A stretch of 64,000 nt of DNA. Origin: an uncultured delta proteobacterium (lineage in GTDB: Bacteria > Desulfobacterota > Binatia > UBA9968). The position numbers were made by a program, and so were the translations under genes. Location: NCBI GenBank assembly GCA_963727625.1, contig CAVSHR010000004.1:1582780-1646779 (forward strand), in the 5' to 3' direction. Within the stretch, counting starts at the first letter, position 1; each line of letters opens with the position of its first letter. This document shows positions 20,305 to 61,558 of the stretch, in pieces. The notes under the pieces were generated by a model. It worked only from the letters and a program-made list of their open reading frames with translations. It did not search any database and was not told the origin of the DNA.

Positions 20305-20320
20305 AGTTTACAACGCCGCC

Positions 20321-31920: not shown

Positions 31921-31924
31921 CCGG

Positions 31925-32467: not shown

Positions 32468-32742
32468 ATGAGTTCCGTATCGATACTGGAGCAGTAGACA
32501 AAGTCATCCGCCTCCGACACCGTTAAGTTCTAGCCAAGTGTGCGCTCCCGCCGGAATCTTATTGTACCGAGTCATGATCTGACGGATTCATTTTGGTGAA
32601 GGAAAGAAACGCGTTGCCGACTTCAACTGTCTCTTAAAATCCGTAAAGTGCTGCCGGGACAATGGTGATTCGAAGCGGAAGCAAGTCGAGAACAATGAGA
32701 CAATCGCACATCATGGCGACGTCGCCCGCCGAACGAATTCGT

Positions 32743-32755
32743 TGACACTGTGTCA
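32743..32755. promoter_or_regulatory. Palindromic operator overlapping a TTGACA -35 box
   Basis: TGACAC-T-GTGTCA just upstream of the GAF-sigma54 activator. Confidence 0.4.
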
Positions 32756-32777: not shown

Positions 32778-34343
32778 ATGCAATCGAGCAATGCAAACAA
32801 TCTGGAGGAATCCGCCAACAGCGCCAGCCGAGAACACCTACAAAAACTTCGCACCGTGATTAACATCTGCCGGCGCATGAGCGCGATGACCGATCTGGCG
32901 TCGCTCCAAGCCCTGATCATCCGCGATGCCAAGAAACTCTTGCAGGCGGAAAGGGTCAGCGTTTTCCTTTTTGACCGCGAGAATTGCGAACTTTGGTCGG
33001 CGATTTCCCAGGAAGGCAAGATCATGCGCTTCGACGCCCGGCTCGGTATCGCCGGCGCCGTCGCCATGTCGGGTCAGCCAATCAATGTCGCGGATGCCTA
33101 CGAGCATCCGCTGTTTTATAAAGAAGTCGACATTGAAACCGGCTACCGTACCCGTACGCTTCTCGCCGTGCCGCTGCATAGCCTCGATGGCGCGGTGATC
33201 GGCGTCGGTGAAGCGAGCAACAAAGTCAACGGCGTTTTTACCGATCAAGATGCCGAAATTTTGGCTACCGTGGCGGCACAGCTCGCCGACATTATTGAAA
33301 ACTCGCCCATTGCAACGGAGCTGAAAGCGCAAAAACCCAAACCCAACCGCTACCCGGCGGCCCAAATCATTAACGGCTTTTCGACGCAATACATCGTCGG
33401 CATGAGTGATCGCATTCAATCGATCATCAGGCTTATCGACCAAATCCGGCCGAGCTCAGTGGATGTCCTGATTCAAGGCGAAAGCGGCACCGGCAAAGAG
33501 TTGATCGCCAAAGCCTTGCATTCCAACAGTCGGCGCGCAAAGCAGCCTTTTGTCGCGGTGAACTGCGCTGCCCTGCCGGACAACCTCGTCGAGACCGAGC
33601 TCTTCGGCATCGAAAAAGGGGTTGCGACCGGCGTCGATCGGCGCCTCGGCAAATTTGAGACCGCGCAGGGCGGCACCCTATTCCTCGACGAGATCGGCGA
33701 TCTTAGCCTTTCAACTCAAGCAAAAATCCTGCGCGTATTGCAAGAGCGCTCGATTGACCGCGTTGGCGGCCGCAATCCGGTGCCGATCGACGTGCGCATC
33801 ATCGCCGCGACCAATCGTGACTTGGAATTCTGCATGCGCGATAAGCAATTCCGCGACGATTTGTACTACCGGTTGAGCGTAGTGCGTATCCAAACTCCGG
33901 CATTGCGCGATATTGCTGAGGATATTCCGATACTCGCCAACTATTTTTTGCACAAACAGTGCGCCGCCATGGCCGTCGAACCCAAGCACTTCGCACCCGA
34001 AGCGATGGATCGCTTGGCGCGTTACGATTGGCCGGGAAACGCCCGGCAGCTGGAAAACGAAGTTAAACGCCTGCTGGCCTCCGTGCGGGAAAAGACGATC
34101 ATGGAAGATCACTTAGCGATCAAGCCTAATCGGGAAATCGCCGTAGAGCCGGAAGCCCCTCGGTCTTCGGCCGAGGAATCGCTCCACGATACCGTCGAGG
34201 CGCTCGAGCGGCGGATGATTCAAGACGCTTTAATTGCCTGCGGCGGCAACAAGCTCAAGACGGCGCAGCGTCTCGGTCTGAGCCGGCAGGGCCTGTTTAA
34301 AAAGCTCAAGAAACTCGGCGTGCCCACACGTGAATTAAAATGA
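32778..34343 (+). CDS. Sigma54 activator with N-terminal PDE/CyaB-type GAF domain
   Basis: GAF: GIAG..INVADAY..F..EVD..TGYRT..LAVPL..NK..FT..D; AAA: GESGTGKE, GVATGV, FLDEIG, WPGNARQL; Fis-type HTH. Confidence 0.9.
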   Translation: MQSSNANNLEESANSASREHLQKLRTVINICRRMSAMTDLASLQALIIRDAKKLLQAERVSVFLFDRENCELWSAISQEGKIMRFDARLGIAGAVAMSGQPINVADAYEHPLFYKEVDIETGYRTRTLLAVPLHSLDGAVIGVGEASNKVNGVFTDQDAEILATVAAQLADIIENSPIATELKAQKPKPNRYPAAQIINGFSTQYIVGMSDRIQSIIRLIDQIRPSSVDVLIQGESGTGKELIAKALHSNSRRAKQPFVAVNCAALPDNLVETELFGIEKGVATGVDRRLGKFETAQGGTLFLDEIGDLSLSTQAKILRVLQERSIDRVGGRNPVPIDVRIIAATNRDLEFCMRDKQFRDDLYYRLSVVRIQTPALRDIAEDIPILANYFLHKQCAAMAVEPKHFAPEAMDRLARYDWPGNARQLENEVKRLLASVREKTIMEDHLAIKPNREIAVEPEAPRSSAEESLHDTVEALERRMIQDALIACGGNKLKTAQRLGLSRQGLFKKLKKLGVPTRELK

Positions 34344-34453
34344 AAAGACTTCTAACCACAAAATCGGCCGAAACCCGATGCCGGAGCGTCACCGCGAATC
34401 GGCCGCATCGCCGTTAATCCGCACCGGCGAAGAGCGCGAATCCTCTGATCGTC

Positions 34454-34684
34454 TTATTTCATCTTGTTGAAAATGCCCTTGGCCGCTTGTTGGAGCAGCG
34501 GGTTTCGCACGATCACCTTCGAGATCGCGCTGCGCAGCTTGGCCTCGCTACTTTTGGCTTTTGAAGCCTTCTTCTGGGCGTTGACCGCCGCCTGCAAGTC
34601 TTTGTTCTGCTTGATCAACGCGCGAATCGCCTTGCGCATCTTGGCGGCTTTCGCTTCCGATAGTTTCGGTCCGCTTTTGCCCAT
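34454..34684 (-). CDS. Small basic Lys/Ala-rich protein (76 aa)
   Basis: SD GGAGG; last gene of the NRPS-strand run; internal two-fold repeat. Confidence 0.7.
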   Translation of the reverse strand: MGKSGPKLSEAKAAKMRKAIRALIKQNKDLQAAVNAQKKASKAKSSEAKLRSAISKVIVRNPLLQQAAKGIFNKMK

Positions 34685-34742
34685 GCAACACCTCCGTGTG
34701 ATTGTCAAAGTTTTCCTGCGCTAGTCACGCTCCGGTTCCCTG

Positions 34743-36527
34743 TCAAGAATTATTTCCGCACTGCGCGGCGATCGCCGAATCGTCAGTGCGGTCGCTGACT
34801 TTGAGTTTTTGCAGTTTCATTTTTATTTTTGCATCGCTGCGAAATCGCGTCGGTTTCGATGACATCTTGATGAAATCTTCCAGCAGGCTTGCGAACCGCT
34901 TGCTCCAACTCGATGGATCGGAGCCCTCGTAAAGATTGGCGATGCTCACGTCATGGCCCAAACCGCGGAATTCGAGCAACACGCGGCTGCCGTCCTTCAG
35001 TCCGTAGGTCAAAAAGTCCTCGGCCTGGCAACCTGCAACAACCGTGTCGCGGCTTCCTTTAATCAGCAGCGTCGGCACTTCATGGCGATAATCCGCGGGA
35101 TTCCATGGGCAGATTTTTTCATCCTCGACAATACCGATTTTTTTAGCCTGGTCCCGGCCGAATTTCTTGGCGTCGCCCGATTGATTCGCGAATCTCTCGA
35201 GATCTTTCCCGTAAAAGCAGCCCTTCGCGCCCATCATCACCGATATCCAGCGAGCCACGCCGTCGTACACGCCGAATACATAACTGCCCCGGCGCGACTC
35301 TCGCCCGCCAAGCCGGGCCCGCAGCTCTTCCTTAGCAGCCTTGAACCGCTCGCAATATTCGCATTCCGAATCCGTGCCGCCGAAGAGCCCGCTCTTTACG
35401 GTGCAGCGGCCGGGATTGTCCGAAATCAGATAATAGGCAATCACCAACGCCGCGTTAATCCGATTGCGGCTGTCCGCGACGAAAACCAGTGCGTTTTTCT
35501 CCGGCGCACCGGCCATTTGCAGGTAGCGCACGGCGGCAAAAAATTCTATGGGGAATTGTCCGAACGCGGCTCGAAAGCGCTTGTCATCCTTCTTCAACTG
35601 GGCATAGTTGTCAACGACAAAATCGGCGGAGCCGTAGTTTTCGTCGATCTGAGGCAGGATTTTTTCCAGTCGCTGGGCGATCTTGTCGGCGGCTTCCGTT
35701 TTCAAAAAGCAAAAATTGTCGCTCGGCCCCAGCCGGTTATCGAAAATCGTAATTTGCGGATCGGCATAATCGGTGACCAATCTTTTCAAGAACGAAGCGG
35801 AAGCGCAGGTGCAATCGGTGGCGCCTTGCGTGCGGTAATAACTAATAATCGCTTTGAGATTATCGATAGTCATACGGGTGCGCGCCTCGTGAGTGTCGGT
35901 CCGGTGGCGATCCACCGGCCCCGACAAGATCAAGCTCGTCACTTTGGGATTGGCATCGTTGGGCTTGCCATACCTGGCCGCGTAGCGCTGCGCGATCACC
36001 GTGCCCCAACTATGCGCATAGATCGCATCCCAAGCCCTCCCCTTCAGCACCTCTTGGCGCAGCCGCTCGATGTCTTCGACGACGTAATCGGCGCGCAAAA
36101 ACTGATCGTACACCTTGCTGCCGTCGATCGCGCTTGCCGCCATGCCGCGCGGGTGAAAGTAAACCACGTTGTGCTTTTTCTCCAAAAGCCGCAGCGCCGA
36201 GGTCCTGCTGCCGGTATCGACGATCGCACCCGGACCGCCGGGAATAAAGAGAATGTTCAGTCGTTGTTTCTTGCTCAAGTCGAAACCATCGGCAAGAAAG
36301 TAAGCGAGGTCGAATTGGCAAGCTGCCGGTTTTTCGCTGCAATGCAAGCCGGCCGGATAAGTTTTACCTGGAGGCAATAACGGCAATCGGAGCGACGCGC
36401 CTTCCGCGTCACCGGGCTCGCCCATTTCTTTGGGCGTCCACTTCTCGCCGGAGACTTCGCCGGCGGGCGCCGCTTGCGTCCAAACAACAACGAATAGACA
36501 GCCGATTCCGATCAGGATGTGCTTCAT
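34743..36527 (-). CDS. Secreted alpha/beta hydrolase (peptidase S33/TAP-like)
   Basis: Signal peptide, PGGPG, HPRG, AHSWG (Ser), GSRD (Asp), GLGH (His). Confidence 0.8.
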   Translation of the reverse strand: MKHILIGIGCLFVVVWTQAAPAGEVSGEKWTPKEMGEPGDAEGASLRLPLLPPGKTYPAGLHCSEKPAACQFDLAYFLADGFDLSKKQRLNILFIPGGPGAIVDTGSRTSALRLLEKKHNVVYFHPRGMAASAIDGSKVYDQFLRADYVVEDIERLRQEVLKGRAWDAIYAHSWGTVIAQRYAARYGKPNDANPKVTSLILSGPVDRHRTDTHEARTRMTIDNLKAIISYYRTQGATDCTCASASFLKRLVTDYADPQITIFDNRLGPSDNFCFLKTEAADKIAQRLEKILPQIDENYGSADFVVDNYAQLKKDDKRFRAAFGQFPIEFFAAVRYLQMAGAPEKNALVFVADSRNRINAALVIAYYLISDNPGRCTVKSGLFGGTDSECEYCERFKAAKEELRARLGGRESRRGSYVFGVYDGVARWISVMMGAKGCFYGKDLERFANQSGDAKKFGRDQAKKIGIVEDEKICPWNPADYRHEVPTLLIKGSRDTVVAGCQAEDFLTYGLKDGSRVLLEFRGLGHDVSIANLYEGSDPSSWSKRFASLLEDFIKMSSKPTRFRSDAKIKMKLQKLKVSDRTDDSAIAAQCGNNS

Positions 36528-36545
36528 AGGCTCCAATCCATTTTG

Positions 36546-39500
36546 CTATGTCAGCGCGATATCGGCGATGCGCTGCTCACGATCCGTAACCATCCGCGCC
36601 AAGATCGCCGAATAGTTCTTTAACAGCCGTGCGATCCCGGCAGAATCGAATAGATCAGTCTTGTAGTTGACAGCTCCCGTCAACTTCGCTGACAGCTCGC
36701 GTAAATGAAAGTTGACATCCAGCCGCGAAATCCCGATGCCGGGGTCACTTAAGCGGTTGTTGTCGTTCCAAGAAGCAATTGTAAGACCATTCACCTGCTT
36801 ACTCGCTGTCGATTGGTTTCGGTAATTAAGCATTACCTGATAGAGCGGCGCGCTGGTTTTTTTCCGCCGCCTTTCAAGCAGCGTTTCGAGATATTCGAAG
36901 GGCAACTCTTGATGGGCATACGCGGCGATACAGCACTCCCGCACGGCCCGAATTAACTCGGCAAACGTCATCTTCCCCTCAACCGCCGTGCGCAGCACCA
37001 GCGCGTTGACGAAGTAGCCGATCAGCCCTTCGGTTCCAGCGAGCCCTCGGTTAGCCGATAGCGTGCCGATCGAAATGTCCTTTTGCCCCGTGTAATGATG
37101 GATGAGAGCGCTCAGGGCCGCGACGAAGATCATGAAAGGCGTGCAGTTCTGCTCGCGGGCGAATGACTTTACCCGGCTGAATAGTTCGGCGTCAAACTCC
37201 ACCGGCCGCCGCGAGCTATGGTAACGCGGAGGGGTTTTGCTCTTGCTCCGGCGAAATTCGAGCGCGGGACCGAGCCCGTCGAGCTGCTTTTTCCAGTAGG
37301 AAATCTGCGGCTCGAAATGCCCTTTGCTGAGCGACGCCCTCTGCCAGCGCGCAAAGTCGGAATGTTGGATCTCCGGCTCGGGCAAAGGCGACGGTCGGTC
37401 TTTTGAGAACGCGTCGTAAAGCGCGGTCAGTTCGCGGCGAAACACTCCCATCGACCACTGGTCCGTAATCAGGTGATGCATGGTCAATAGTAAGACATGC
37501 CGCTCGGCGGCGAGGCGAACCAGCTTGACTCTTATGAGCGGCGGCTCCTCCACGTCGAAGCTTTGTGTCGCATCCTGCTTTGAGATCCGCTCCAGTGTAA
37601 GGTCTCGCTCCGCCGCCGGTAGCCGTGTCAAATCGATGAGAGGAAACTTCACCCGTAGCCTTTGACGAATGAATTGCCTGGCTCCGTTTTCGGTCTCTCT
37701 AAAGCCCGTGCGCAGCGCGGCATGGCGTCCAACGATCTCGGCGAGCACTCGCTGTAATGCCGGCAGGTTTAAAGAACCGCTGAGCCGATAGGCGTAGGGC
37801 ATGTTGAGGAAATCGCCGCCGCCGAACAATTGACTAAAGAGAAATAGCGGCTCCTGGCTCAAGGACAACGGCAGCCCGCCCCGCCGCGGCGCCGGTTTGA
37901 TCGGCAATAGCTCCACACCGTCGCCGTTGTGAAACATTTTTTCCACCGTCGCCGCGAAACCGGCCACCGTGGGCGCTTCGAAGAGATCGCGCACCGGCAC
38001 CGGCCGGCCCAGGGCGTCGCGCAGCCTGGCCGCGACTTCGGCGGCCAACAGCGAATGGCCGCCAAGCTCGAAAAAATTATCGTGAACGCCGATCGCCTCG
38101 ACCCCTAAGACTTTCTCCCATACCTGTGCCACAAGGCCTTCTAATTCCGTGCGCCGCTTGGAAAGAGTAGCGGCGGCGATCGGCGCAGCGGGCGCCGGCA
38201 ACGCGCCCCGATCGATTTTGCCATTGGGCAACAGCGGCAGGGCATCGAGAAAGACGAAACCTGCTGGAAGCATAAAATCCGGCAATCGCTCTTTCAGAAA
38301 AGTTCGGAGCTCGCGTGCAGCCGGCGGGCATTCGCGTGCCACGACATAGGCAACGATGAATGGCTCAGATTTTGGATTATCGGATTTCCGTCGCTTCCCT
38401 AAATGCACAACCACGGAGCATTCGCGCACATCTGGATGTCGGCTGAGAGCGAATTCGACTTCGCCGAGCTCGACCCGGCAACCGCGGATCTTGACCTGCT
38501 GATCGAGACGGCCCAAAAACTCGATGTTGCCGTCGGCACAGTAGCGCGCCAGGTCGCCGGTGCGATACAGGCGCACACCGGCCCTTGCGGGAAAAGGATC
38601 GGCGATGAACCGATTCGCGGTCAACTCCGGACGAGCGTGATAGCCGCGCGCGAGATTTTCGCCGCCGACGTAGAGTTCGCCGCGCACCCCCACGGGCACC
38701 GGCTGCATCTGATCGTCGAGGAGATAAATCTGCGTATTATCGATGGGCCGGCCGATCGGAACCGCAGCATCGCAATGGTCATCGCCGACTTCGTAATAAG
38801 TCGCGTCCCCGGCCACCTCGGAAGAGCCGTACAGATTGATCAACCGGCAAAAGGGCAAGCTCTCACAAAACTTCCGAGCGATTTCAGTCGACAGCGTTTC
38901 GCCGCTGCTGAAACAATAGTTAAGAGCACGCAATTGCTTCGGCGCATCGCGGCAGTGTTCGAGCATTTCTTTCAAGAATGATGGAACCAACACCAGCCGT
39001 GTTACCCCGCACTCGGATAAATAATTGACGAAAAGCTGGGGATCTTTCGCGGCTGAATCGGGAACGATCGCCGTCGGGACGCCCTGCAGCAAGGCACCGA
39101 AGATCTCCCAAACCGAATCAACAAAGCTCAGCGAAGTCTTTTGGCAGCTCTTTTCGCCCGTGCCGAACGGGTAGCGCCGCCACATCCAGGCGAAACGATT
39201 GAGCACACCGCGATGGGGTGCGACAACACCCTTCGGTGTCCCCGTCGAACCTGAGGTGTAGATGACACACATGGCGTTTTCGGCGCGAGCCTGTTTCTTG
39301 AGATTGGCCGCGGCGCCGGACCGGTCGCGCAGCAACTGCTCGATCGACACTTTTTTACCGATGAAATCTGCAATTCGACCGGCGTATTTTTCCTGGGTCA
39401 ACAAAACTGCAGCTCGGCTGTCGGCCAACATGAACCTGAGACGCTCTTCCGGGTAAGCCGGATCCAACGGCAGATAGGCGCCGCCGGCCTTGAGAATCGC

Positions 39501-44300: not shown

Positions 44301-47300
44301 AATCGCACCGCCGGCAGGATTTCTTGCGCTGGCTCGCCGCCGATCTCGACAATCGCGCTGCGCAGCGCCGCGTGGCGCTGAATAATCCCATTGAGCGCCG
44401 CTTGGAATGCCGCAAAATCGAAAGACCCCTTGACGCGATAGGCCGAAGGCATGTTGTATGCGGTTAAATCACCCTCGAGCTGATGCAAAAACCAAAGCCG
44501 CCGCTGGGCGAACGAAAGCGGCGCCCGCCGCTGATCCGGCGCCGCAACGATCGGGGCGATCGCCACGCCGCTGCGCTCGCGGCGCAAGGCTTCGACATGC
44601 CGCGCCAAGCCGGCGACGGTCGGCAGCTCGAACAGCTTACGCAAAGCCAATTCGACGCGCAGCTTCGCCCGCAGGCGCGACGCCACCCGCGTGGCCAGCA
44701 GCGAATGGCCGCCGAGGTCGAAGAAATTGTCGAATATGCCGACTCTCTCGATACCGAGCACTTCACGCCAGATTTGCGCGATCCACTCTTGGGTTTCCGT
44801 GCGCGGCGCGAGGAACTCTGCGGTCGACCGAACATTGCGGAAATTCAGCCGCGGCAGCGCCAAGCGATCCACTTTGCCGTTGGGCGTGAGCGGCAGTGCG
44901 TCGACCGGCAGGAAGACCGACGGCAACATGAACTCCGGCAATTTTTGCCGCAGCCAGTCGCGCAGCTCGGAAGCGGCAGGCAGCGCCCGCGAGTTGCCCA
45001 CGATGTATGCGACAAGCTGCCGATCTGATTTTGGATTTTGGATTTTCGCCTTTGGATTAGAAGGCAACTTCGGCTCAGCAGCAGAAACCTCACGCACAGC
45101 GGCGACGCATTGGCGAATCGCCGGATGCTCGGCAAACGCCGCCTCGAGTTCGCCGAGCTCGATGCGATAGCCGCGGATCTTTACCTGGTTGTCGGCGCGG
45201 CCGAGATACTCGATATTGCCGTTGGCAAAGTAGCGCGCCAGATCGCCGGTGCGGTACATGCGCGCGCCGCGCTTCTTGGCGAAAGGATCACGGAGAAATC
45301 TCTCCGCGGTCAACTCCGGCCGGCGCAGGTAGCCGCGCGCCACACCGGCGCCGCCGATATAAAGCTCGCCGGGCACGCCCACCGGAACGGGTTGCAGCGC
45401 CGCGTCGAGCAAATAAATTTTCGTGTTGGCGATGGGCCGGCCGATGGTGGCCTTGCCATCGGCGCGGCGCAAGGTAAAAGTCGAATAGGTGGTGGTTTCC
45501 GACGGCCCATAGAGGTCGTAAACTTTCTCGACCCGTCCCGTGGCGTAGAGCCGGCGCACTAGATCCGGCTTCAACGGTTCGCCCGCCAGGTTGACCGTCC
45601 GCACCGAGCGCGGCAAAGCGCCGGCGTCGAGCAATTCGGCGATGGCCGAGGGAACGGTGTTGATCAGCGTGACATCTTCGCGGTCGATCAAATCGGCGGC
45701 CCCGAGCGCGTCTCGGACTAAAATCACCTTGCCGCCTCGGCTCAGAGGCGCAAATAATTCGAAGACCGACAAATCGAAACAGATCGAAGTCGACGCCAAA
45801 ACGCCGGCGAGCCCGGCCGGTGAAAACACCCGACGGGCCCACTGCAAGAAAGCCGCCGCGTTGCGATGCTCGATCGCCGCGCCCTTGGGCCTTCCCGTGG
45901 AGCCGGAAGTGTAAATGACGTAGGCGAGATTGCGCGCGGCTGCGGTTTTGCCAAGGTTTTTCGCCGATTCTTTTTCGATCGCGGGCCCATCCCGGTCGAC
46001 ACAAACGACTTGCATATCGAGCTCTGCCGCCAGAGGTGCGATTGTGTGAGAGCGCTTGTCCGCGGCAAACTTCTGCTGGGTGAGCAGCAAGTCAGCGCGG
46101 GCATCGTCGACCATGAACACAATGCGCTGGCGCGGATAGTGCGGATCCAGCGGCAGGTAGGCACCGCCGGATTTGAGGATCGCCAGCAATGCGATCACCA
46201 TTTCCGGCGACCGTTCCAGGCGGACACCGACCAGCTTTTCCGGGCCGATGCCGCGTTTTCGTAAATAGCGCGCCAAGCGATTGGCCCGGCCATTGAGCTC
46301 CCGGTAAGTCAGCTGCCTGCCGGCGCACTCCAGCGCCACGGCATCGGGCGCGCGCCTGACTTGGGCTTCGAATAATTCATGAACACAGCGATTGCGCGCC
46401 ATCGCCGTATCGGTCCGGTTCCAATCGACAAGAATTTGCCGGCGCTCGGCGGCCTCGAGCAACGGCAAATCCGCGATGCTCCGGTCCGGATCGGCAGCGC
46501 TGCCGCGCAGTAAACAAACCAAATGGCGCGCCAATCCTGCGATCGTCGAACGGTCGAACAGATCGCTGCTATACTCTATAAAGCCGCTTAAGTCCCCGGC
46601 CTCCTCGGTCAGCGAAAGCGTCAGATCGAACTTTGACGTGCACGACTCCAGGTCCAAGGCATCAACCTTGAGTCCGGGAAAGTCGACATTCGCAGCGGGA
46701 TAATTCTGACAGGCAAACATCACTTGAAACAACGGATTGCGGCTTAAGTCGCGCTCGCGCTGCAGCTCTTCAACCAACCGGTCGAAGGGCAGCCCTTGAT
46801 GCGCCAGCGCGCCACGGCAATGCCCGCGCACCTGTTTGAGCAGTTGGCGAAAAGTCGGTCGTCCCGACAGGTCCGTCCGCAACACCAGCGTATTGACGAA
46901 ACATCCAATGAGGTTTTGCCTGTCGCGCGCATTGCGATTGGCCGCGGGAAAACCGACCGAGATGTCATCTTGACCGCTGTAGCGCCAGAGCAGCACGTTA
47001 AACGCCGCCATCAGCACCATGAACATCGTCGCGCGCGCTTCGGCGCCGACGCCTCGCAGTTTGCCGGCCAGCGATGCGTTAATGGTCAGCGGCAATCGAC
47101 CGCCGCGAAAGCTTTGCAGCGCCGGCCGCGGCCGATCGGTCGCCAGAGCAATAGCGGATAGATTGTTTTCCAGCCGCTTCTTCCAGTAGGCCAAATCGTC
47201 CTGGAGTGAGCAATGTTCCAACTGCGCCCGCTCCTGCGCCGCGTAGTCGCGGTATTGAATCTGGATCTCAGGCAGCGCCGGCGCCTTGTCGCTGACAAGG

Positions 47301-49795
47301 GAGCGATACGAAAGCGCCAGCTCGCGCAGCAACAGATTCATTGACCAGCCGTCGCACACCAGCTGGTGCAAAACCAAAAGCAGAACATGATGTTTGTCGG
47401 CAAGTTTGATCAAATCCGCGCGCAAGAGCGGGGCGCGCTCGAGCGCGAACGGCGCCGCGGTTTTTTCCGCAAGCCGGCGGGATAGCTCAGCGCGCTTCAC
47501 AGCCGGCGCCAGCTCGGTTAAATCGACGAGTTCCAGCGTCAACTCGAGCGCAGGCGCAACCACTTGAGCTGGCCTGTCGTCGACGCAGGAAAACACCGTG
47601 CGGAGAATTTCGTGCCTCTCGATAAGTGCATTCATCGCCTGGTTCAGGGCATCGCAATCCAAACGGCCCTGCAGCCGCAGCGCGCGGGAAATATGGTAAA
47701 CCGAACTTTGTGGTTCGAGCTGGTGAAGAAACCAAAGGCGCTCTTGGGAGATTGACAAAGGCGCCGCCTGAGCGCCCTTGGGCGCTTCAACCGAGCCATG
47801 AGTTGGAAGCTCGATTCCCTGCGCTTCAAGCAACGTGGCTAGAAGCTTGTGCCGGGCGTTAGCCATCACTTGAGCGCCCCCGTCTTTTCTTAAAACCTTT
47901 TCAACCTCGTTGTCGGACATCGATTCGATTTGCAAATAAGCGGTCGCGATCTTTTCCGCCTGACCGGGTTTGGCTTCATGCACGAGAATGAATTTTGCCA
48001 AGGCCGCGATGGACGGCCCCTGCGCCAGCGTAACCAACGGCTCGGTAAGCGGAAAGAGTTCTTGGACGCGCGCGAGGATTTGCGCGGCCTGAAGCGAATC
48101 GCCGCCAAGCTCGATAAAATCTTCGTCAACGGCGAGAAATTCAAGATTCAAGGCATCGCGCCAAAATTCCAATAGCAGCTTTTCGAGCCCGTTCCTCGGC
48201 ACGACCGAACGATCGCCCGGCTTGCTGGGCGTTTTTTTAAACCCCGGCAAGGCGCGCCGGTCGATCTTGCCGCCGGCGCTGACCGGCAAGCGGTCCAGAA
48301 CCACGAACCGCGCGGGCACCATGTATGCGGGCAGACGCGTTATAAGTTGCGCGCGCCAGCCGGTGCTCCGAACCGCGCGCTTTCGCTTAGGGACCACGTA
48401 GGCGATCAACCGGTTGCCATTCGCGCCGTCGTATTCGCTCACGACGACCGCTTGCTTGACCGACGGGATATCGTGCAAGGCAGCCTCCACCGCACTCGGC
48501 TCCACCCGGTGTCCCCTGATCTTGGCTTGAAAATCCTTGCGGCCGACATGAACCAGGCAGCCGTCCGAAAGCCTATAGCCGAGATCGCCGGTGCGGTAGG
48601 TGCGCAAGTTTCTCCTCGCGGGCTCGGCGAGAAATTTGGCGCGGGTCAATTCGGGCTGGCGCCAATATCCCAGCGCGAGATAGGGGCTGCGCACGGCGAT
48701 CTCGCCCACCGCCCGCGGGCCGAGGGGTTCACCCCTCTCATCGAGAATCAGCACCTCGTTGCCGTCCAACGGATAACCGACCGGCACTCGTTCTTCATCG
48801 ATCTCGCTTTGCTTGTCGAGAAAAAAATAGGAAACCGCCTGGGTTTCGCTGATGCTGTAGCGGTTGACGAACAAACAATCGTCGCGAAAGCAGCGCTTAT
48901 AGGATTCCACGTCGGCCTTGAAGACCGGTTCGCCGCCGATATGGATCAGCCGGACGCTGGGAAAACTATCGCTGCCGGTCACGACCCGCACCGCGTGGCG
49001 AAACACGGTCGCCACGCAGCTGAACACGCTGATCTCCCCATCGCGAAGCCACCCTGGCAGGGAAGCCAGGCCGGCTTCGTCGATATCGAGGGTGAGCAAC
49101 GCCGCGCCGTTGAGCAGTGCGAGAAACATATCCCGCGCCGCACCGACGTTGTTGGCGCGCAGCAGACTGATGCGATCCTCGGCCGCGATATGCAAGGCAT
49201 TGGTTTTCGTGCGAATGCCGAAAAGCTCGTGGCGGTGATTCCACACCACGCCTTTGGGCTCGCCGGTGGTGCCGGACGTAAAGTTAATATAAGCGATCGA
49301 CTCCGGCGAAAGCGCGAGAGTGGGATTTGACGATAGGTTGCCTCGCAGCAGCTCGATGTTGATCGAGCGTACGCCGGTGGCGGTCAAGGCCTTGGCAGCA
49401 CCGCGAGATTTCTCGTCGGTGAGCAGGAAGCGGGCTTCGAGATTGGCCAAAATCTCTACGATTTTATTTTTTGGCAACCGCCGATCCAGCGGCACAAAGG
49501 CTTTGCCGGCCTTAAGCACTCCCAGGGCGGCGATCGTCGTCGACAGGCCTGCGCCGCAAAGCAGCGCTACCGGCTCATGCCCAGCGCCGGCTCGGTCGAG
49601 CAGTGCGTAGGCGAGTCGATTGGCCGCGCGGTTAAGCTCGTCGTAACTCAGCGCTGTTCCTTGGCTTTTAATCGCGAGCCGGTTCGGGTAGCGGCGCGCC
49701 TGGTGCTCGAACCGCTCGGACAGAGTCTGCAAGGTGTCTTGGAGGCGAAATTCGTTAAACCGGTTGGTGGGACGCGCTGCTGGGCTCGAGCTCAT
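41297..49795 (-). CDS. NRPS 1: A-T-C-A-T-C-A-T
   Basis: Three TSG(T/S)TG.PKG A domains, T motifs GGDSL/GGHSL/GGHSL, C motifs HQLVCDG and HHIVCDG, C-terminal REEIEL docking motif. Confidence 0.95.
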   Translation of the reverse strand: MSSSPAARPTNRFNEFRLQDTLQTLSERFEHQARRYPNRLAIKSQGTALSYDELNRAANRLAYALLDRAGAGHEPVALLCGAGLSTTIAALGVLKAGKAFVPLDRRLPKNKIVEILANLEARFLLTDEKSRGAAKALTATGVRSINIELLRGNLSSNPTLALSPESIAYINFTSGTTGEPKGVVWNHRHELFGIRTKTNALHIAAEDRISLLRANNVGAARDMFLALLNGAALLTLDIDEAGLASLPGWLRDGEISVFSCVATVFRHAVRVVTGSDSFPSVRLIHIGGEPVFKADVESYKRCFRDDCLFVNRYSISETQAVSYFFLDKQSEIDEERVPVGYPLDGNEVLILDERGEPLGPRAVGEIAVRSPYLALGYWRQPELTRAKFLAEPARRNLRTYRTGDLGYRLSDGCLVHVGRKDFQAKIRGHRVEPSAVEAALHDIPSVKQAVVVSEYDGANGNRLIAYVVPKRKRAVRSTGWRAQLITRLPAYMVPARFVVLDRLPVSAGGKIDRRALPGFKKTPSKPGDRSVVPRNGLEKLLLEFWRDALNLEFLAVDEDFIELGGDSLQAAQILARVQELFPLTEPLVTLAQGPSIAALAKFILVHEAKPGQAEKIATAYLQIESMSDNEVEKVLRKDGGAQVMANARHKLLATLLEAQGIELPTHGSVEAPKGAQAAPLSISQERLWFLHQLEPQSSVYHISRALRLQGRLDCDALNQAMNALIERHEILRTVFSCVDDRPAQVVAPALELTLELVDLTELAPAVKRAELSRRLAEKTAAPFALERAPLLRADLIKLADKHHVLLLVLHQLVCDGWSMNLLLRELALSYRSLVSDKAPALPEIQIQYRDYAAQERAQLEHCSLQDDLAYWKKRLENNLSAIALATDRPRPALQSFRGGRLPLTINASLAGKLRGVGAEARATMFMVLMAAFNVLLWRYSGQDDISVGFPAANRNARDRQNLIGCFVNTLVLRTDLSGRPTFRQLLKQVRGHCRGALAHQGLPFDRLVEELQRERDLSRNPLFQVMFACQNYPAANVDFPGLKVDALDLESCTSKFDLTLSLTEEAGDLSGFIEYSSDLFDRSTIAGLARHLVCLLRGSAADPDRSIADLPLLEAAERRQILVDWNRTDTAMARNRCVHELFEAQVRRAPDAVALECAGRQLTYRELNGRANRLARYLRKRGIGPEKLVGVRLERSPEMVIALLAILKSGGAYLPLDPHYPRQRIVFMVDDARADLLLTQQKFAADKRSHTIAPLAAELDMQVVCVDRDGPAIEKESAKNLGKTAAARNLAYVIYTSGSTGRPKGAAIEHRNAAAFLQWARRVFSPAGLAGVLASTSICFDLSVFELFAPLSRGGKVILVRDALGAADLIDREDVTLINTVPSAIAELLDAGALPRSVRTVNLAGEPLKPDLVRRLYATGRVEKVYDLYGPSETTTYSTFTLRRADGKATIGRPIANTKIYLLDAALQPVPVGVPGELYIGGAGVARGYLRRPELTAERFLRDPFAKKRGARMYRTGDLARYFANGNIEYLGRADNQVKIRGYRIELGELEAAFAEHPAIRQCVAAVREVSAAEPKLPSNPKAKIQNPKSDRQLVAYIVGNSRALPAASELRDWLRQKLPEFMLPSVFLPVDALPLTPNGKVDRLALPRLNFRNVRSTAEFLAPRTETQEWIAQIWREVLGIERVGIFDNFFDLGGHSLLATRVASRLRAKLRVELALRKLFELPTVAGLARHVEALRRERSGVAIAPIVAAPDQRRAPLSFAQRRLWFLHQLEGDLTAYNMPSAYRVKGSFDFAAFQAALNGIIQRHAALRSAIVEIGGEPAQEILPAVRLAVPVVDLSSFPRKQTEREIARYAAEDAEQPFELQRAPLLRAKVLRLAGDEHVLLLNIHHIVCDGSSLALFFRELAGRYEALLARREISLAPLALQYGDFAWWQVQSLREGELATETGYWKRQLAGLRSIDLPRDYARADAPNYRGVKLTHRLSAELSNALKKLSRTENVTLFMTLLTALQILLSRLSGQEDIVVGSTLAGRNRPEIENIIGFFINPVALRVDLSGNPSVVDLLGRVREVCLAAYTYQDLPFERVVEEVAPERDLGRNPLFQVLFNMADIAEREFQLPGCDVVKLRRAAPGAKFDLVFQAPEFDDGIELTLVYNPDLFSETRAQSMLEQWASLLAQVAAGPAQRIEQFSLLTPAAQALLPDPRERFDDTWFGAVHELVERQAALRPEKVALADDQESWNYRELDQLSNRLAHRLVCGGIRPQDVVAIYAHRDATITLAILAVLKAGAVFTILDPAYPPARLRDYLRIAAPKGMVQMAGAGELPAEIAACVEGKKNFLRVMLPRGKREIAKQLGKWPEETLPIPLSADDPAYIAFTSGSTGEPKGVLCRHGPMTHFLPWQRKTFDLKESDRYALLSGLGYNHLHRDLFTALATGAALYVPHAEELQDPEQLVPWLRRRKISMLHLTPALGRLLQTVRGQTLPALRRIFFGGDLLSRRDAAAMRALAPRAMITSFYGATETQRAVGYAVVDAAASEKNHASPFVPTGRGARDVQLLLLTANDQLAGIGELGELYIRSPHLAAGYLNDRALAAANFIVNPFTGRERDRLYRTGEMGRYQPDGVVEWVGRKERRASIRGFRVELAEVETALQRHPGVRGAALVVRAGAAPEDAQLIAYVACGNSSAVDAEKLRRFLSAQLPHYMIPAHISILERLPLNPSGKIDYVALAKRPPLEPAPDRSYEQPLSAPEATVGKILAALLHLERVGRNEHFFELGGHSLLAAQAAARIRETFGVELDLRAFLKAPTVAGICRCIESSGGGVEFARSQQREEIEL

Positions 49796-49802
49796 TGAAC
49801 TC

Positions 49803-52800
49803 TTATTCGCGCTGTTGCCTCAATGGGTTTTGCTCGCCGGCAAAGACTTGATTCGCCGGGCTTTCAAACAGAGCCTCGACGCGGTTTTGCCAATGGGTCA
49901 TTTCCATACTGCGAAATTGCTCGCTGGCTGCCACGAACTCTTCCCGCGCTTTTTCGGTGATGCACTGGACCGCATACACCGAACCGATGCCGACATGGCA
50001 ATGAGCGGCGAGCGGCCGCATTCCCAGTTCGCTACCGAGCGCCAAGGCTTTCCGGTAATAAGCTTCCGCTACAGCCGCTTCGCGCTTTTTCCCTTGCAGC
50101 GAAATATCGCCGCTGATTTTCAACGCCCAGGCCTCGTGGCCACGCTCTTTGTACTGGTTAGACAAGTCGACGGCCCGGGCGGCGCAGCGCGCAGCTTCGT
50201 TCACCCGGCCGGAAAACAGATAGCCCTCCGCCAGCGACGCCATGCACAGGGAGGTAAAAGCCATCCGCCCTGAATTGACGGAATCTTCAACGCCCTGCTC
50301 CAGGTAGGTCAGAGCGTCACCGATCCGCCCCGCGTTGGCATAGGCGGAACCCAAGCGCGACGCGGTGAACGGCACGTAGACGGGAATATTTGCGGAGCGG
50401 CAGAGCGCAAAGCTGCGCTCGAGAAGCGGGATCGCTTGATTGAAGTCGCCCTTGAGCAAATAGAGCATGCCGGCGCTGCATAGCATATGGATCAGACTGG
50501 TGGCATGGTCCGCTTCTTCGCCGATTTGGATGCCTTCGCTGCCAAGCTCCCCGCCCTCGGCGAAGCGGCCCATCGCGGCCAGGCACTGCACCAGATGGCT
50601 CCGGCAAATAACCGATAACACCGCCGCAGTGCCGAAGCGCTCGTAGCGATGATCCGCGCCGATGTTTTTGATTCCACGCCGCAGCGCTTCGACGGCAAGC
50701 TCGTATTGGCCGGTCTTGTTGTAAGCTGCGCCCAGGTAGTAATTGGTGACCGTACTGTAGGCGAGATCGGCTTGCACAACGCCCAGCCCGAGCGCGCGCT
50801 GGCCGATTTGAATGGCGTGCTCCGGGTCACCCGCCAGGCCATAATAACTATTGAGAAAATTGAGCACGCGGGCGGTGCGCTGTTCGTCGCCGAGCCGTTC
50901 GGTCAACGCTTCGGCGGCGCTCAAGTGCGCCGCCACCCGCGTCGAGTCGCCGAGCAAGAATAAAATGTTGCGCGCTTCGAGATGAAGATCGATCTGCTGC
51001 GCTATTTTTTCGGGAGCATCAGCGAGATGATCGGTTGCGCGCAACGCCCGCTCGTAACAAGCCAACGCTTCGAAAAACGCCGAATGCGAGGTCGCTTTGG
51101 CGCCGGCACCCAGTAAGTAGGCGACGGCCTTGGGCCAAAGCTCGCCATGGAAAGCATGGTGCGCGAGGGCTTCGATTTCATCGTGCAAATCGTCGCCGCC
51201 GATGCGTTCCAGCGCGCCGACGACGCTCGCGTGCAGCGCGGTTTTTCGTTCGTGCAGCAGCGCCCCGTAGACGACCTCATTGGTCAGCGCATGCCTAAAA
51301 CTGTATTCCGGCTCGGGAAACAAACTGTACTCGTAAATAAATTCCGACGCCTGCAGATTAAACAAATGGCGGTGCAGGTCCTCCGCCGGAAAACCGGCGA
51401 CCTTTTCCAGCAAACGCAACGGCACGACCACGCCGATCACCGCGGCGATCTGCAGCAGTTGCTTCTCGGCGCTTGACAACCGGTCCACGCGATCGGCGAG
51501 CACCGTGCGCACCGTGCTGGGAACGCGGATGCTGTCGACGGCGATTCCCGGCCGATAGCTTCCTTTGGCCCCCACCAGCACACCGGTCTCGGTCAAGGAG
51601 CGGACGATTTCTTCGACGAAGAACGGATTGCCTTCCGTGCGCTTGATCAGAAGCTCCCTGAGCAACGCCAGCTCTTCATTGCCTCCCAAGAGCGACTCGA
51701 TCAACTCGTTGGCTCCGGCCGGCGGCAATGGATCGACCCGAAGCCGAGCGTAGTACTCCTTGCTCGCCCAGGTATGGGTATAACCAGGCCGATAATTGAC
51801 CAATAGATAAATTCGCGCCAGCGGCAGACTTTCCACCAGAAGATCGAGAAACGCCTGGGTCTCGCTGTCGATCCAATGCAGGTCCTCGAAAACCACCAAC
51901 AGCGGCTGCTGCGCGCTTTCGCGCATCAATAGGCGCCGCATCGCGTCGAGGATCTGCGTCCGCCGCTCGCGAGGTTCCAAGCCGTCGAATTTTTCCATGG
52001 CCGCAGCGACTTCGGGGTATTCGAGGAGCTGGCCGCTACCGTCGCTCAAATCTTTCGCCGGCGACAGCGCGTCAAGCAGAGTCAATATCGGCGGGATGGC
52101 GTCGAGTAACTGCCGGTCGAGCGCTAAGATCTTTTGTAAAATCTTCTTGCGCACGCTTTGAGCCTCTTCAGTGGCCGAAATTTCAAAAAAGTGCCGCAAG
52201 AGTTCGATGACCGGCAAGTACGGCGTGGCGGCGCCATAGGACACCGAGAACCCCTGAATCACTTTCCAACCGGGCGGCAGATGGTGCTGGATAAACTCGC
52301 GCACCAGACGCGACTTGCCCATGCCGGCCTCGCCGGCCAGAGCTAAAATTCGCCCCGTCCTCGTCTCGGCGGTAAATTGCCGGAACGCTTCAATCTCCGC
52401 TTGTCGCCCAACGAAGATCGAAAGCCCGCGTTCGCCCTGGGCCTGCAGACGGTTATGTGCCGCGGTTGCGCCGACCAGTTCGAAGGCGTCGATCGGATTG
52501 GTAAAACCTTTAACTTGCAAAGAACCGACGGAACGCACCTCGACAAAGCCCTCGACCTCGCGCAAGGTATCGGCCGTCAACATGATAGCACCCGGCGCCG
52601 CCAGCGCTTCCATGCGCGCAGCCAAATGGGTTGTATGGCCGAGCGCAGCATAGTCAATGTTCAGATCGTTGGTGATCGAGCGCACGACGACCTCGCCGGA
52701 ATTGATGCCGATGCCGATCTTCAATGAAGCCCGAGGCGCCTGACCGCCGTTTTCGGCGGCCCAGCGCATTTCTTCCTGCATGGCGAGCGCGGCGTAACAG

Positions 52801-53282
52801 GCGCGTAGGGCGTGGTCCTCACGGGCCAGTGGAGCGCCGAACAATGCCATGATCCCGTCGCCTAACACTTGATTGACCGTGCCTCCGTATCGGTGCACCG
52901 CGTCCATCATGATCTGTAGAACCGGATCGAAGCGATTGCGCACCTCTTCCGGGTCGAGGTTTTCTACAAGGCTCGTGGAGCCGCGAATATCGGCGAACAG
53001 AACGGTAACCTGTTTGCGCTCGCCTTCGATGAATCGCCGCGTGGAAAGCATTTTTTCAGCGACGAACCTCGGGACGACGGTATTGGCCGCGGCCGGTTGT
53101 GACAAACCGGCGCTGCTCACCGCCGTCGAGTCGACCAACTGCTGGCCGCATTTTTTGCAGAATTTGGCGCCGTGACGATTCGGCTCCCGGCACTGAGAAC
53201 AGAGCGTATCCAACGGCGCGCCGCACTCATCACAAAAGAGCGCGTCCGGGGGGGATTCGGTCTGGCAGTGGGAGCAAATCAT
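49803..53282 (-). CDS. Double zinc ribbon-class III nucleotide cyclase-AAA (STAND)-TPR protein
   Basis: CxxC x4, VTVLFADIRGST, GDGIMALFG, LAARME, GEAGMGKS, FEDLHWID, GNPFF, TPR-like tail. Confidence 0.92.
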   Translation of the reverse strand: MICSHCQTESPPDALFCDECGAPLDTLCSQCREPNRHGAKFCKKCGQQLVDSTAVSSAGLSQPAAANTVVPRFVAEKMLSTRRFIEGERKQVTVLFADIRGSTSLVENLDPEEVRNRFDPVLQIMMDAVHRYGGTVNQVLGDGIMALFGAPLAREDHALRACYAALAMQEEMRWAAENGGQAPRASLKIGIGINSGEVVVRSITNDLNIDYAALGHTTHLAARMEALAAPGAIMLTADTLREVEGFVEVRSVGSLQVKGFTNPIDAFELVGATAAHNRLQAQGERGLSIFVGRQAEIEAFRQFTAETRTGRILALAGEAGMGKSRLVREFIQHHLPPGWKVIQGFSVSYGAATPYLPVIELLRHFFEISATEEAQSVRKKILQKILALDRQLLDAIPPILTLLDALSPAKDLSDGSGQLLEYPEVAAAMEKFDGLEPRERRTQILDAMRRLLMRESAQQPLLVVFEDLHWIDSETQAFLDLLVESLPLARIYLLVNYRPGYTHTWASKEYYARLRVDPLPPAGANELIESLLGGNEELALLRELLIKRTEGNPFFVEEIVRSLTETGVLVGAKGSYRPGIAVDSIRVPSTVRTVLADRVDRLSSAEKQLLQIAAVIGVVVPLRLLEKVAGFPAEDLHRHLFNLQASEFIYEYSLFPEPEYSFRHALTNEVVYGALLHERKTALHASVVGALERIGGDDLHDEIEALAHHAFHGELWPKAVAYLLGAGAKATSHSAFFEALACYERALRATDHLADAPEKIAQQIDLHLEARNILFLLGDSTRVAAHLSAAEALTERLGDEQRTARVLNFLNSYYGLAGDPEHAIQIGQRALGLGVVQADLAYSTVTNYYLGAAYNKTGQYELAVEALRRGIKNIGADHRYERFGTAAVLSVICRSHLVQCLAAMGRFAEGGELGSEGIQIGEEADHATSLIHMLCSAGMLYLLKGDFNQAIPLLERSFALCRSANIPVYVPFTASRLGSAYANAGRIGDALTYLEQGVEDSVNSGRMAFTSLCMASLAEGYLFSGRVNEAARCAARAVDLSNQYKERGHEAWALKISGDISLQGKKREAAVAEAYYRKALALGSELGMRPLAAHCHVGIGSVYAVQCITEKAREEFVAASEQFRSMEMTHWQNRVEALFESPANQVFAGEQNPLRQQRE

Positions 53283-53523
53283 AAGACAAGCAGTGTCTAG
53301 TTTGCCGGCTTAACTTGCCCGATGTGATTTTTTTGGCGGCTCGCTCCCAGCATATATTACCGGTGTGAATTTAAAGCAAGGAGCGCGCGCAACCGGCCGG
53401 GACTCGGGCTGTGGCGCGATTGGGCCGGCGCGGCGTTCGGCCGAATCGAGTTACGATGGCCTGCGGGGGATCGGTCCAGGAGACCTTTGTTTGATCGATT
53501 TGAACGTTTTGAAATCCGCCGAT

Positions 53524-61457: not shown

Positions 61458-61558
61458 TCTAGCGCAACAAATACTATTTGAGTAGACACCGTCACACGAG
61501 CAACGATGGCCGATATTGAGGCTATGCAATATCATCACTGCGGCATAGCAGGCACCAC

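Follow-up and report, generated by a model that had tools for sequence, protein, structure and literature searches.

We analysed a 64,000-nucleotide stretch of DNA (hereafter the window, to which all positions refer) from an uncultured delta proteobacterium (Binatia; UBA9968) with a 6.6 Mb genome in 15 contigs. Our subject is an orphan nonribosomal peptide synthetase (NRPS) operon that opens with a gene for a protein that joins a nucleotide cyclase domain to a STAND NTPase and a TPR region, together with the sigma54 activator gene that converges on this operon. The five genes of the operon lie on the minus strand in the order cyclase-STAND-TPR, NRPS1, NRPS2, hydrolase and basic protein, and the gene for the activator, which contains a GAF domain, is on the plus strand (labels beginning with G and L below denote genomes of relatives and compared loci, respectively):

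49803-53282, minus strand: cyclase-STAND-TPR protein, 1159 aa, first gene of the operon
41297-49795, minus strand: NRPS1, 2832 aa
36546-41285, minus strand: NRPS2, 1579 aa
34743-36527 (ATG start) or 36536 (TTG start), minus strand: secreted hydrolase, 594 or 597 aa; the better placed ATG at 36527 is the likely start
34454-34684, minus strand: basic protein, 76 aa
32778-34343, plus strand: GAF-sigma54 activator; the open reading frame (ORF) opens at TTG 32742

Consecutive genes of the operon are separated by 7 bp (cyclase and NRPS1), 11 or 14 bp (NRPS1 and NRPS2, for a TTG or an ATG start), 9 or 18 bp (NRPS2 and hydrolase, again for TTG or ATG) and 58 bp (hydrolase and basic protein). An earlier note on this DNA had described five co-oriented, tightly spaced genes and a convergent activator; all six were found, with matching coordinates and gaps, and only its description of NRPS1 and NRPS2 as overlapping or nearly so needs amendment, the two genes being close (11-14 bp) and not overlapping. 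The note had also pointed to a separate promoter or terminator at about 49800, the cyclase/NRPS1 junction, as a finding that would refute its reading. Neither a promoter-like nor a terminator-like site was found around this position; the junctions between the operon genes contain no promoter or terminator consensus, and terminator-like sites in the region 34000-53800 number 24, against 28.4 expected from shuffles. Two promoter-like elements were located:

53354-53379, minus strand: sigma70-like promoter of the cyclase gene, TTGCTT ... TAATAT, predicted from the sequence
34718-34746, minus strand: promoter-like element of the basic protein gene, TTGACA-17 nt-TAGCGC, with TTGACA overlapping the hydrolase stop codon

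The first element recurs as TTGCTT...TA(A/T)ATAT upstream of the cyclase genes of G006, G027, G018b and G025b, with similar elements in G018a and G025a, and the second is kept as TTGAC[ACT]-N17-TAGC in G006, G025a and G027. A sigma54 promoter before the basic protein gene was considered and rejected: inspected by eye, the TTGACA-N17-TAGC element in G025a and G027 does not have the GG-N10-GC register.

The domain composition of the two synthetases is regular. NRPS1 has the order A-T-C-A-T-C-A-T (three adenylation, A; two condensation, C; and three thiolation, T, domains by Pfam), that is, A1-T1, an internal docking-like linker and C2-A2-T2-C3-A3-T3; NRPS2 consists of a TubC_N-type docking domain followed by C4-A4-T4 and a terminal C domain (Pfam). 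Four matches to AMP-binding and AMP-binding_C were detected across the two proteins, with the A3 motif SG[ST]TGxPK and the A10 motif PxxxxGK each present four times, and the four PP-binding domains carry GGDSL or GGHSL at positions 564, 1695 and 2773 of NRPS1 and 1075 of NRPS2. Compared with the HHxxxDG consensus of C domains, C3 reads HHIVCDG, C4 HHLVVDA, the terminal C domain (aa about 1130-1579) HHLITDQ, and C2 HQLVCDG (NRPS1 aa 802-812; about 47370-47390), in which Gln replaces the catalytic second His; this replacement is kept in five type-a orthologues. The terminal C domain is closest in sequence to ordinary C domains (Txo1, 5.6e-63). The A1-T1 loading module, fused to the rest of NRPS1 in the window, is encoded in G006, G012 and G029 by an ORF of its own that overlaps or adjoins the following one; the fusion point is at aa about 640-650 (about 47860-47900), and the part downstream of it opens with the docking-like helix. 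NRPS2 contains neither a thioesterase nor a reductase domain, and a Pfam scan of 32 ORFs of the window (a set that does not include small ORFs such as 19712-20329, 21862-22476 and 61017-62131) revealed no thioesterase, reductase, MbtH protein, phosphopantetheinyl transferase or exporter, so that, for the ORFs scanned, the same statement in the earlier note holds.

The protein encoded by the first gene of the operon has four recognisable regions:

aa 3-46: double zinc ribbon (Pfam DZR)
aa 89-261, about 52500-53018, minus strand: class III cyclase homology domain (Pfam Guanylate_cyc, 2.5e-21)
aa 290-495, about 51798-52415, minus strand: STAND P-loop NTPase (Pfam AAA_16, 3.2e-25)
aa about 735-1100: TPR sensor region (Pfam TPR_12, TPR_2 and TPR_MalT)

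The STAND NTPase has its Walker A (GEAGMGKS) and Walker B (VVFEDLHW) motifs and is followed by the helical/TPR repeats. A maximum-likelihood tree was built from 22 full-length homologues, and a single clade in it (SH-aLRT 100, branch length 0.47) encompasses all 12 cyclases that are followed by an NRPS gene and three second copies that sit just downstream of the hydrolase gene of a cluster; six of the seven cyclases outside this clade have no NRPS gene within 4 kb, and the seventh is at a contig end. In the relatives, 18-76 bp separate the cyclase gene from the NRPS gene that follows it. Because of the 7-bp gap in the window and the cluster-specific clade, we assign the cyclase to the cluster: its gene is a conserved and integral part of the NRPS operon, in first position, and the protein very probably belongs to the cluster functionally. 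Second cluster-type cyclase genes were observed between the hydrolase and the activator at L027 (G461) and L131; in G461, the second gene comes after an IS630-like transposase, and two copies of gene Y, described below, flank the activator. The source genome encodes one further full-length protein of the zinc ribbon-cyclase-STAND type.

The hydrolase is an alpha/beta, S33-like serine hydrolase (Pfam Abhydrolase_1/S33) with a signal peptide, many cysteines and a large cap insertion. All 8 homologues compared keep the triad Ser176, Asp497 and His528 as well as the GGPG motif; the nearest relatives with solved structures are proline iminopeptidases (1.4e-10), and the match to the NCBIfam model pro_imino_pep_2 (36 bits) is under the family cut-off. 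The hydrolase was identified in 12 of 61 related genomes (own genome counted), all in the genus of the window, in 1 of 401 genomes of a phylum-wide sample, namely the source genome itself, and in 3 of 301 genomes of a class-wide sample, again only in this genus. The 76-residue basic protein is rich in Lys and Ala, its gene is preceded by a strong GGAGG ribosome-binding site, and it is 32-84% identical to its counterparts in 7 homologous clusters; no family was found for it in Pfam, NCBIfam or PADLOC, and no usable match in the Atlas. Its gene is present in 19 of 19 type-a metagenome loci. From this distribution, both the hydrolase and the basic protein are conserved partners of the cluster.

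The arrangement as a whole recurs. Wherever the hydrolase and cyclase genes share a contig in the 61 related genomes, they are 13-15 kb apart and on the same strand; among ten regions compared, the full set including the convergent activator is present in G006, G018, G025, G027, G019, G029 and G003, and three further complete clusters were found in G017, G026 and G461. In many of the relatives' assemblies, the long cluster genes contain frame breaks. The flanks of the cluster fall into at least three unrelated contexts. A search with the hydrolase alignment added a sample of 80 metagenome loci, some of them near-duplicates. Downstream of the hydrolase, the activator was matched in all 16 loci that extend 3.5 kb or more beyond it, in 22 of the 26 that extend 2.2 kb or more and in 36 of the 55 that extend 700 bp or more. 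Sorted by identity to the hydrolase of the window, these 55 loci are composed as follows:

Hydrolase identity at least 50%: 19 loci, of which 19 have the basic protein gene, 18 the activator and 0 gene Y
Hydrolase identity below 50%: 36 loci, of which 9 have the basic protein gene, 18 the activator and 17 gene Y

Across the divergent loci, the identity of the hydrolase drops to 34% and that of the activator holds at 53-75%. The earlier note had regarded its interpretation as endangered if homologous NRPS clusters usually lacked the cyclase and the activator; most of them have both. Given its recurrence in the related genomes and the 80 metagenome loci, the arrangement is not due to chance, and these comparisons confirm the cyclase, NRPS, hydrolase and basic protein genes as a real, conserved and lineage-restricted cluster. 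By the same counts, the activator is a near-constant companion of the cluster, yet one that is separable from it.

The activator has the domain order of a sigma54-dependent regulator with an N-terminal sensor:

about 32895-33287, plus strand: GAF domain (Pfam)
about 33393-33893, plus strand: AAA+ domain (Pfam Sigma54_activat, 5.8e-65; AAA_lid_14 also matched)
about 34194-34316, plus strand: helix-turn-helix domain (Pfam HTH_8, 1.3e-11)

When the first 202 residues were compared with all solved structures, the best match was Anabaena CyaB2 (1YKD, 1.7e-33), followed by a GAF-HD phosphohydrolase (4MCW, 8e-29) and the GAF-B domain of PDE2A (1mc0, 2.2e-28), with weaker matches to PDE10A (2zmf, 1.6e-18) and PDE5 (2k31, 3.2e-16); the GAF domain of the activator Nlh1 matches at just 1.3e-7. 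Aligned to the cGMP site of PDE2A, the pocket residues are identical, namely the Ser of SVF, the GIAG backbone pair and the Tyr, Asp, Thr, Thr and Glu of FY..VD..TG.RT....GV.E, which we take to be S424, I458/A459, Y481, D485, T488, T492 and E512 in PDE2A numbering. The guanine-reading Asp of PDE2A (presumably D439) falls in a gap, as it does in the cAMP-specific CyaB2. The NK..F...D signature that the earlier note had seen in this domain is there to be read as NKVNGVFTDQDAE, and S-V-F, GIAG, FY..VD..TG.RT, GV.E and NK..F...D.E are conserved in 37 homologues of the activator. According to PMC4411481, the NKFDE motif is conserved in most of the characterised GAF domains that bind cyclic nucleoside monophosphates (cNMP). 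In the activator, this motif takes the form N-K-x4-F-x3-D-A-E, in which four residues out of five match the motif in position and the Glu is displaced by one, and this form is kept in the 37 homologues. The claim of the earlier note that the GAF domain is of the cyclic nucleotide-binding type has gained in strength, its closest solved relatives being cNMP-bound GAF domains with the same pocket residues, and we consider it likely that the domain binds a cyclic nucleotide. The difference from CyaB2 and from PDE2A, PDE5 and PDE10A, with which it has in common the phosphate/ribose pocket residues and the NK..F...D(x)E motif, is that a single GAF domain is attached here to a sigma54-type AAA+ domain and a helix-turn-helix domain rather than to a cyclase or phosphodiesterase, and that the motif ends in D-A-E, not D-E. 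A GAF domain of this type occurs only once in the source genome, where the next match has 27% identity (3e-8), and the gene encoding it is 15.5 kb from a cyclase gene.

The positions of sigma54 promoters indicate what the activator might control. In the window, the pattern TGGCAC-N5-TTGCW with up to two mismatches yielded 30 matches, with 30.5 expected. In ten related genomes (G018, G025, G027, G019, G003, G014, G021, G030, G022 and G017), a canonical TGGCAC-N5-TTGCT lies 150-530 bp past the 5' end of the activator gene and points away from it, and the same divergent promoter accompanies the activator in three metagenome loci. The gene that follows is either EBP2, a second sigma54 activator (in G018a and G025a about 470-490 aa long and with the loop GAFTDA), or HDO, a 253-aa haem-oxygenase-like/PqqC-like protein; EBP2 is intact, with the sigma54 promoter upstream, in G017, G018, G025, G027 and G030. 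In the window, only part of this gene was detected (tblastn with EBP2 of G018a, G025a and G027; Pfam fragment):

31915-32467, minus strand: EBP2 pseudogene that retains just the C-terminal 40% (residues 272-456 of 473) and is interrupted by frame breaks and an in-frame stop

The regions between the activator and the divergent promoter in five relatives were searched for a shared enhancer, but have no 10-14 nt word in common at 1-3 mismatches.

A third type of sigma54-linked gene is gene Y, which encodes a small secreted protein (about 104 aa) that has a signal peptide, two cysteines and the motif ..YCH.KFP...DFYGPCDHDPLG.. and belongs to no Pfam family; it has a conserved leader and a hairpin, GGGGAGGG...CCCTCCCC, 3' of the stop codon. 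In 19 of 22 usable rows, a sigma54 promoter is located at a fixed 52-69 nt before the start of Y; the three rows that lack it are two paralogues in the source genome and one partial match. In the divergent cluster types, Y lies beside the activator (L094:3480-3861 and its equivalents in L093, L126, L123, L111, L131, G012 = L016, and G025b), often between it and the hydrolase. The latter location of a gene that, judging by its promoter, would be sigma54-dependent is the best sequence-level tie of the activator to the cluster. Inspection by eye also revealed ACGAA(A/T)TT-like words about 100 nt upstream of several Y promoters. From the positions of the sigma54 promoters, we conclude that the activator would act on its own neighbours and not on the synthetase genes; direct control of NRPS transcription by the activator is improbable.

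Taken together, these observations suggest an orphan NRPS operon that has its own sensor cyclase, with the neighbouring activator as a receiver that acts on adjacent sigma54 promoters, an explanation to which we assign a probability of roughly 0.5. A sigma70-type promoter would drive a single operon with the gene of the cytoplasmic sensor cyclase in first place. The two synthetases would build a tetrapeptide on four modules, to be released by the terminal condensation domain rather than by a thioesterase, through transfer to an amine or cyclisation. The secreted hydrolase probably trims or activates the exported product, or else protects the producer, and the basic protein would be made from a promoter of its own. 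Binding of a ligand to the TPR/STAND part would lead to oligomerisation, pairing of the cyclase domains and production of a cyclic nucleotide, the most probable receiver of which is the neighbouring activator with its pocket of the cAMP/cGMP-binding GAF type. The activator would not switch on the NRPS operon but rather would act on the sigma54 promoters beside itself, that is, in the relatives, those of EBP2, of the haem-oxygenase-like enzyme or of the small secreted Cys-containing protein; in the window, these targets have been lost. The sequence comparisons show the gene content, its conservation, the clade structure of the cyclase, the kinship of the GAF domain and the positions of the promoters, whereas cyclase activity, the nucleotide made, its binding by the GAF domain and the direction of the relay are what we infer. 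That the cyclase of this cluster feeds this activator is a possibility with the balance tipped slightly against it, and we are distinctly more doubtful about the full private relay, in which the STAND cyclase senses the peptide, a precursor or an outside cue and the resulting cAMP, cGMP or other cyclic nucleotide gates the GVATGV-type activator to induce secreted accessory proteins and a regulatory cascade, not the synthetase. The earlier proposal of one signalling circuit thus stands in part: the integral cyclase, the hydrolase and basic protein as partners, the cNMP-type GAF domain and the near-constant presence of the activator are in its favour, and the separability of the activator, the lack of sigma54 promoters at the cluster genes and the deletion of the local target are not, with the cyclic nucleotide itself as a presumed link.

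A number of observations weigh against the activator as a receiver for the cluster. The divergent clusters of G018b, G025b and G012 keep the cyclase, NRPS and hydrolase genes and only C-terminal fragments of the activator, and the G012 genome has no such GAF domain at E<=1e-15; similarly, 4 of the 26 metagenome loci with at least 2.2 kb of downstream sequence show no activator. Conversely, activator orthologues with 66-77% identity are found in G014, G021 and G030 with no cluster at the locus, and these cluster-free activators keep the divergent sigma54 promoter. No sigma54 match is present in 53283-53523, before the cyclase gene, or in 34685-34742, before the basic protein gene, and in ten related loci no sigma54 promoter was found at a conserved position before any gene of the cluster. 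In the window, the 5' part of EBP2 and the preceding sigma54 promoter are deleted, no recognisable local sigma54 target is left next to the activator, and the two Y paralogues of the source genome are on other contigs and have no sigma54 promoters. The activator itself is atypical: its L1 loop (33500-33560), like that of 36 of 37 homologues, reads GVATGV instead of GAFTGA, so that the conserved Phe is replaced. In the cyclase domain, three of the six canonical catalytic positions deviate (Gln, Ala and His), including the substrate-specifying pair, where Lys is replaced by Gln (TVNQVLGDG) and Asp/Thr by Ala (DYAALG). Finally, since the compared genomes are all related to one another, counts taken from them overstate the independent support.

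With respect to the loop, the substitution has a counterpart in DVUA0100 of Desulfovibrio vulgaris, which has the same GVATGV and is predicted from its regulon to act at sigma54 promoters (PMC4641369). [quoted passage not shown] The apparent co-location of a GVATGV activator with sigma54 promoters in the present family agrees with the prediction for DVUA0100. PexR was considered as a precedent for a GAF-containing activator and rejected, being a metal/H2O2 sensor with a normal GAFTGA (PMC12754779).

The alternative that survives best, in our view rather unlikely, is that the cluster and the activator are merely old neighbours, brought together by one insertion beside a resident activator. That activator would respond to a different ligand or to cyclases from elsewhere and control the gene divergent from it, and the cluster cyclase would signal through other receptors or only locally. 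The genomes without the cluster speak for this possibility. In G014 and G021, a cupin operon is followed by the activator, the divergent promoter and HDO, and in G019 and G003, the same flanks enclose a 19-kb cluster between the cupin operon and the activator; G030 has the activator and EBP2 with no adjoining cluster, and neither G030 nor G022, both with the activator, encodes a cyclase of the cluster type (best cyclase matches 2.1e-23 and 1.2e-25). The absence of sigma54 promoters from the cluster genes points the same way, as does the abundance of cyclase-domain genes in the relatives, with about 200 matches at 1e-23 to 1e-38 in the 61 related genomes. Other evidence speaks against mere neighbourhood: the adjacency outlasts the divergence of the hydrolase to 34% identity and three or more changes of the flanks, the 3' end of the activator gene travelled along with the duplicated clusters, and the single cNMP-type GAF domain of the genome is encoded close to the cyclase gene. 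A search baited with the GAF domain retrieved 13 activator orthologues with at least 69% identity in the 61 genomes, nine of which are beside a cluster, one on a short contig and three elsewhere. In the tree of activators, which is biased by the use of the hydrolase as bait, the G014/G021 pair is nested among cluster-adjacent activators, a position that fits one secondary loss of the cluster. As a separate observation, G014 contains a decayed remnant of a cluster (L050, G014:C12:134000-153999), consisting of an A-T module and a frame-broken cyclase gene beside an amidohydrolase gene, on a contig other than that of its intact activator.

It is still less probable that the cyclase domain is a poor enzyme or none at all, serving as a dimerisation or output module of a STAND protein that regulates or scaffolds the synthetases by direct contacts, with no second messenger involved. 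The catalytic residues were read by alignment to the solved cyclases 2W01, 3R5G and 1WC0. In class III cyclases, the substrate-specifying pair is Lys and Asp/Thr for ATP or Glu and Cys/Gly for GTP, and the deviations listed above, fixed throughout the zinc ribbon-cyclase-STAND family, favour a non-enzymatic role, as does the failure to find a phosphodiesterase among the 32 ORFs scanned in the window. However, both metal-binding Asp residues (FADIRGST, LGDGIM) and the transition-state Arg are kept, the transition-state Asn being replaced by His (TTHLAARM). Of 23 aligned homologues, whether linked to an NRPS or not, 22 have this Gln and His, and the exception, the distant paralogue in the source genome, keeps the transition-state Asn; conservation this strict points to selection for a working active site. 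The Gln also has a reported precedent in an active cyclase, Rv0386, which is discussed below.

A distant candidate is an NRPS cluster of the usual antibiotic or siderophore type, to which the cyclase, hydrolase, basic protein and activator are unrelated: the NRPS domains are indeed standard, but the short gap and the cluster-specific clade of the cyclase, the succession of terminal C domain, hydrolase and basic protein in 19 of 19 type-a loci and the restriction of the hydrolase family to genomes with the NRPS cluster in the samples counted above all contradict it. The least probable alternative is anti-phage defence by a STAND/Avs or Pycsar system in which the NRPS and hydrolase would be passengers; this is the defence variant of the circuit in the earlier note, and it has no support. 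The architecture of STAND NTPase, TPR and cyclase and the PADLOC matches of the cyclase domain to PycC models (3.8e-16 to 3.8e-4) would speak for it, but these matches, confined to the cyclase domain of the protein, reflect domain-level homology of class III cyclases, and that of the activator reflects AAA+ homology; PADLOC finds no Pycsar effector or other defence model in the hydrolase or basic protein, several paralogues of the family occur per genome, the cyclase clade co-evolves with a 13-kb NRPS, and the flanks (lipopolysaccharide/glycosyltransferase genes on the left, CbbQ/VWA genes on the right) form no defence island.

Several known systems resemble parts of the proposed sensor-cyclase operon with its receiving activator. 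Rv0386 of Mycobacterium tuberculosis, reportedly described with Rv1358 and Rv2488c by Castro and colleagues in 2005, is said to combine a class III cyclase, an AAA ATPase, TPR and a LuxR-type helix-turn-helix domain, and to be an active, somewhat promiscuous adenylyl cyclase with Gln at the substrate Lys position. The cluster cyclase has in common with the Rv0386 type the order of cyclase, STAND-type ATPase and TPR; it differs in the lack of a DNA-binding domain, in the N-terminal double zinc ribbon and in the Ala and His at two further catalytic positions, and its gene heads an NRPS operon, DNA binding being assigned in our model to a separate cNMP-receptor protein. The best NCBIfam match of the cluster cyclase is TIGR03903 (aa 86-1092, 1.8e-93, 314 bits, below the cut-off of 705.75), the 'TOMM system kinase/cyclase fusion protein', a family named for its neighbourhood of thiazole/oxazole peptide genes, with which the cyclase-STAND-TPR body aligns; unlike that family, the protein described here has no kinase domain, and its partner is an NRPS rather than a ribosomal-peptide cluster. 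Through this match, existing annotation already connects a related cyclase-STAND architecture with clusters for natural products; judging by titles and the openings of abstracts, no functional study of the TIGR03903 family was found in the literature.

LAL and SARP/AfsR-type regulators are STAND NTPases with TPR encoded in biosynthetic clusters and presumed to be pathway-specific switches. The cluster cyclase is similar to them in the combination of a P-loop STAND NTPase with TPR inside such a cluster, and the AfsR model NF053617 matches its TPR part (1.3e-7), but their output is a DNA-binding domain, whereas here it is a cyclase domain. The synthetases, in turn, are reminiscent of rhabdopeptide/xenortide-type NRPSs in the multi-protein assembly, the N-terminal docking domains and the terminal C domain in place of a thioesterase; they differ from these in having four fixed modules on two (elsewhere three) proteins instead of iterative single modules, and the present cluster adds the cyclase, the secreted hydrolase and the basic protein. 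No paper describing an NRPS operon with this layout was found in literature searches, nor was one on an enhancer-binding protein gated by a cyclic nucleotide.

To our knowledge, nearly all natural-product clusters that have a pathway-specific regulator use a DNA-binding protein for this role. A ligand-sensing cyclase in such a cluster, if real, would add second-messenger signalling to the known controls of secondary metabolism, and the neighbouring gene offers a concrete, testable candidate for a sigma54 activator gated by a cNMP. If the relay operates as proposed, no enhancer-binding protein before this one would have been shown to respond to a cyclic mononucleotide. The cluster itself would represent an undescribed peptide pathway from uncultured soil bacteria, with four modules, release by a terminal C domain, a secreted S33-type hydrolase of its own and a very small basic protein. 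What triggers the pathway might be found through the addition of cyclic nucleotides or through expression of the cyclase, and the targets of the activator are to be sought beside its own gene and not at the NRPS promoter. Since the local sigma54 targets have been lost, the source genome is badly suited to a test of the relay.

The remaining features concern the surroundings of the cluster and of the activator. Just upstream of the activator gene, a palindrome abuts a -35-like hexamer:

32732-32747 (palindrome 32732-32743), plus strand: AACGAATTCGTT abutting TTGACA

The core of the palindrome, ACGAATTCGT, occurs once in the window, and the palindrome with the TTGACA hexamer is possibly the promoter or operator of the activator itself. 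A second sigma54 activator and a promoter-like site were noted further upstream:

26916-29027, minus strand: double-GAF sigma54 activator, 703 aa, with a normal GAFTGA
26832-26847, minus strand: sigma54 promoter with one mismatch, TGGCTCACGTGTTGCA, directly downstream of the double-GAF activator gene

The left part of the window contains lipopolysaccharide/Kdo and glycosyltransferase genes, and the right part VWA, CbbQ and amidohydrolase genes. The source genome encodes further NRPS loci, at C4:1535490-1550405 (about 32 kb before the start of the window) and on C7, C2 and C10, and contains fourteen condensation-domain matches in all.

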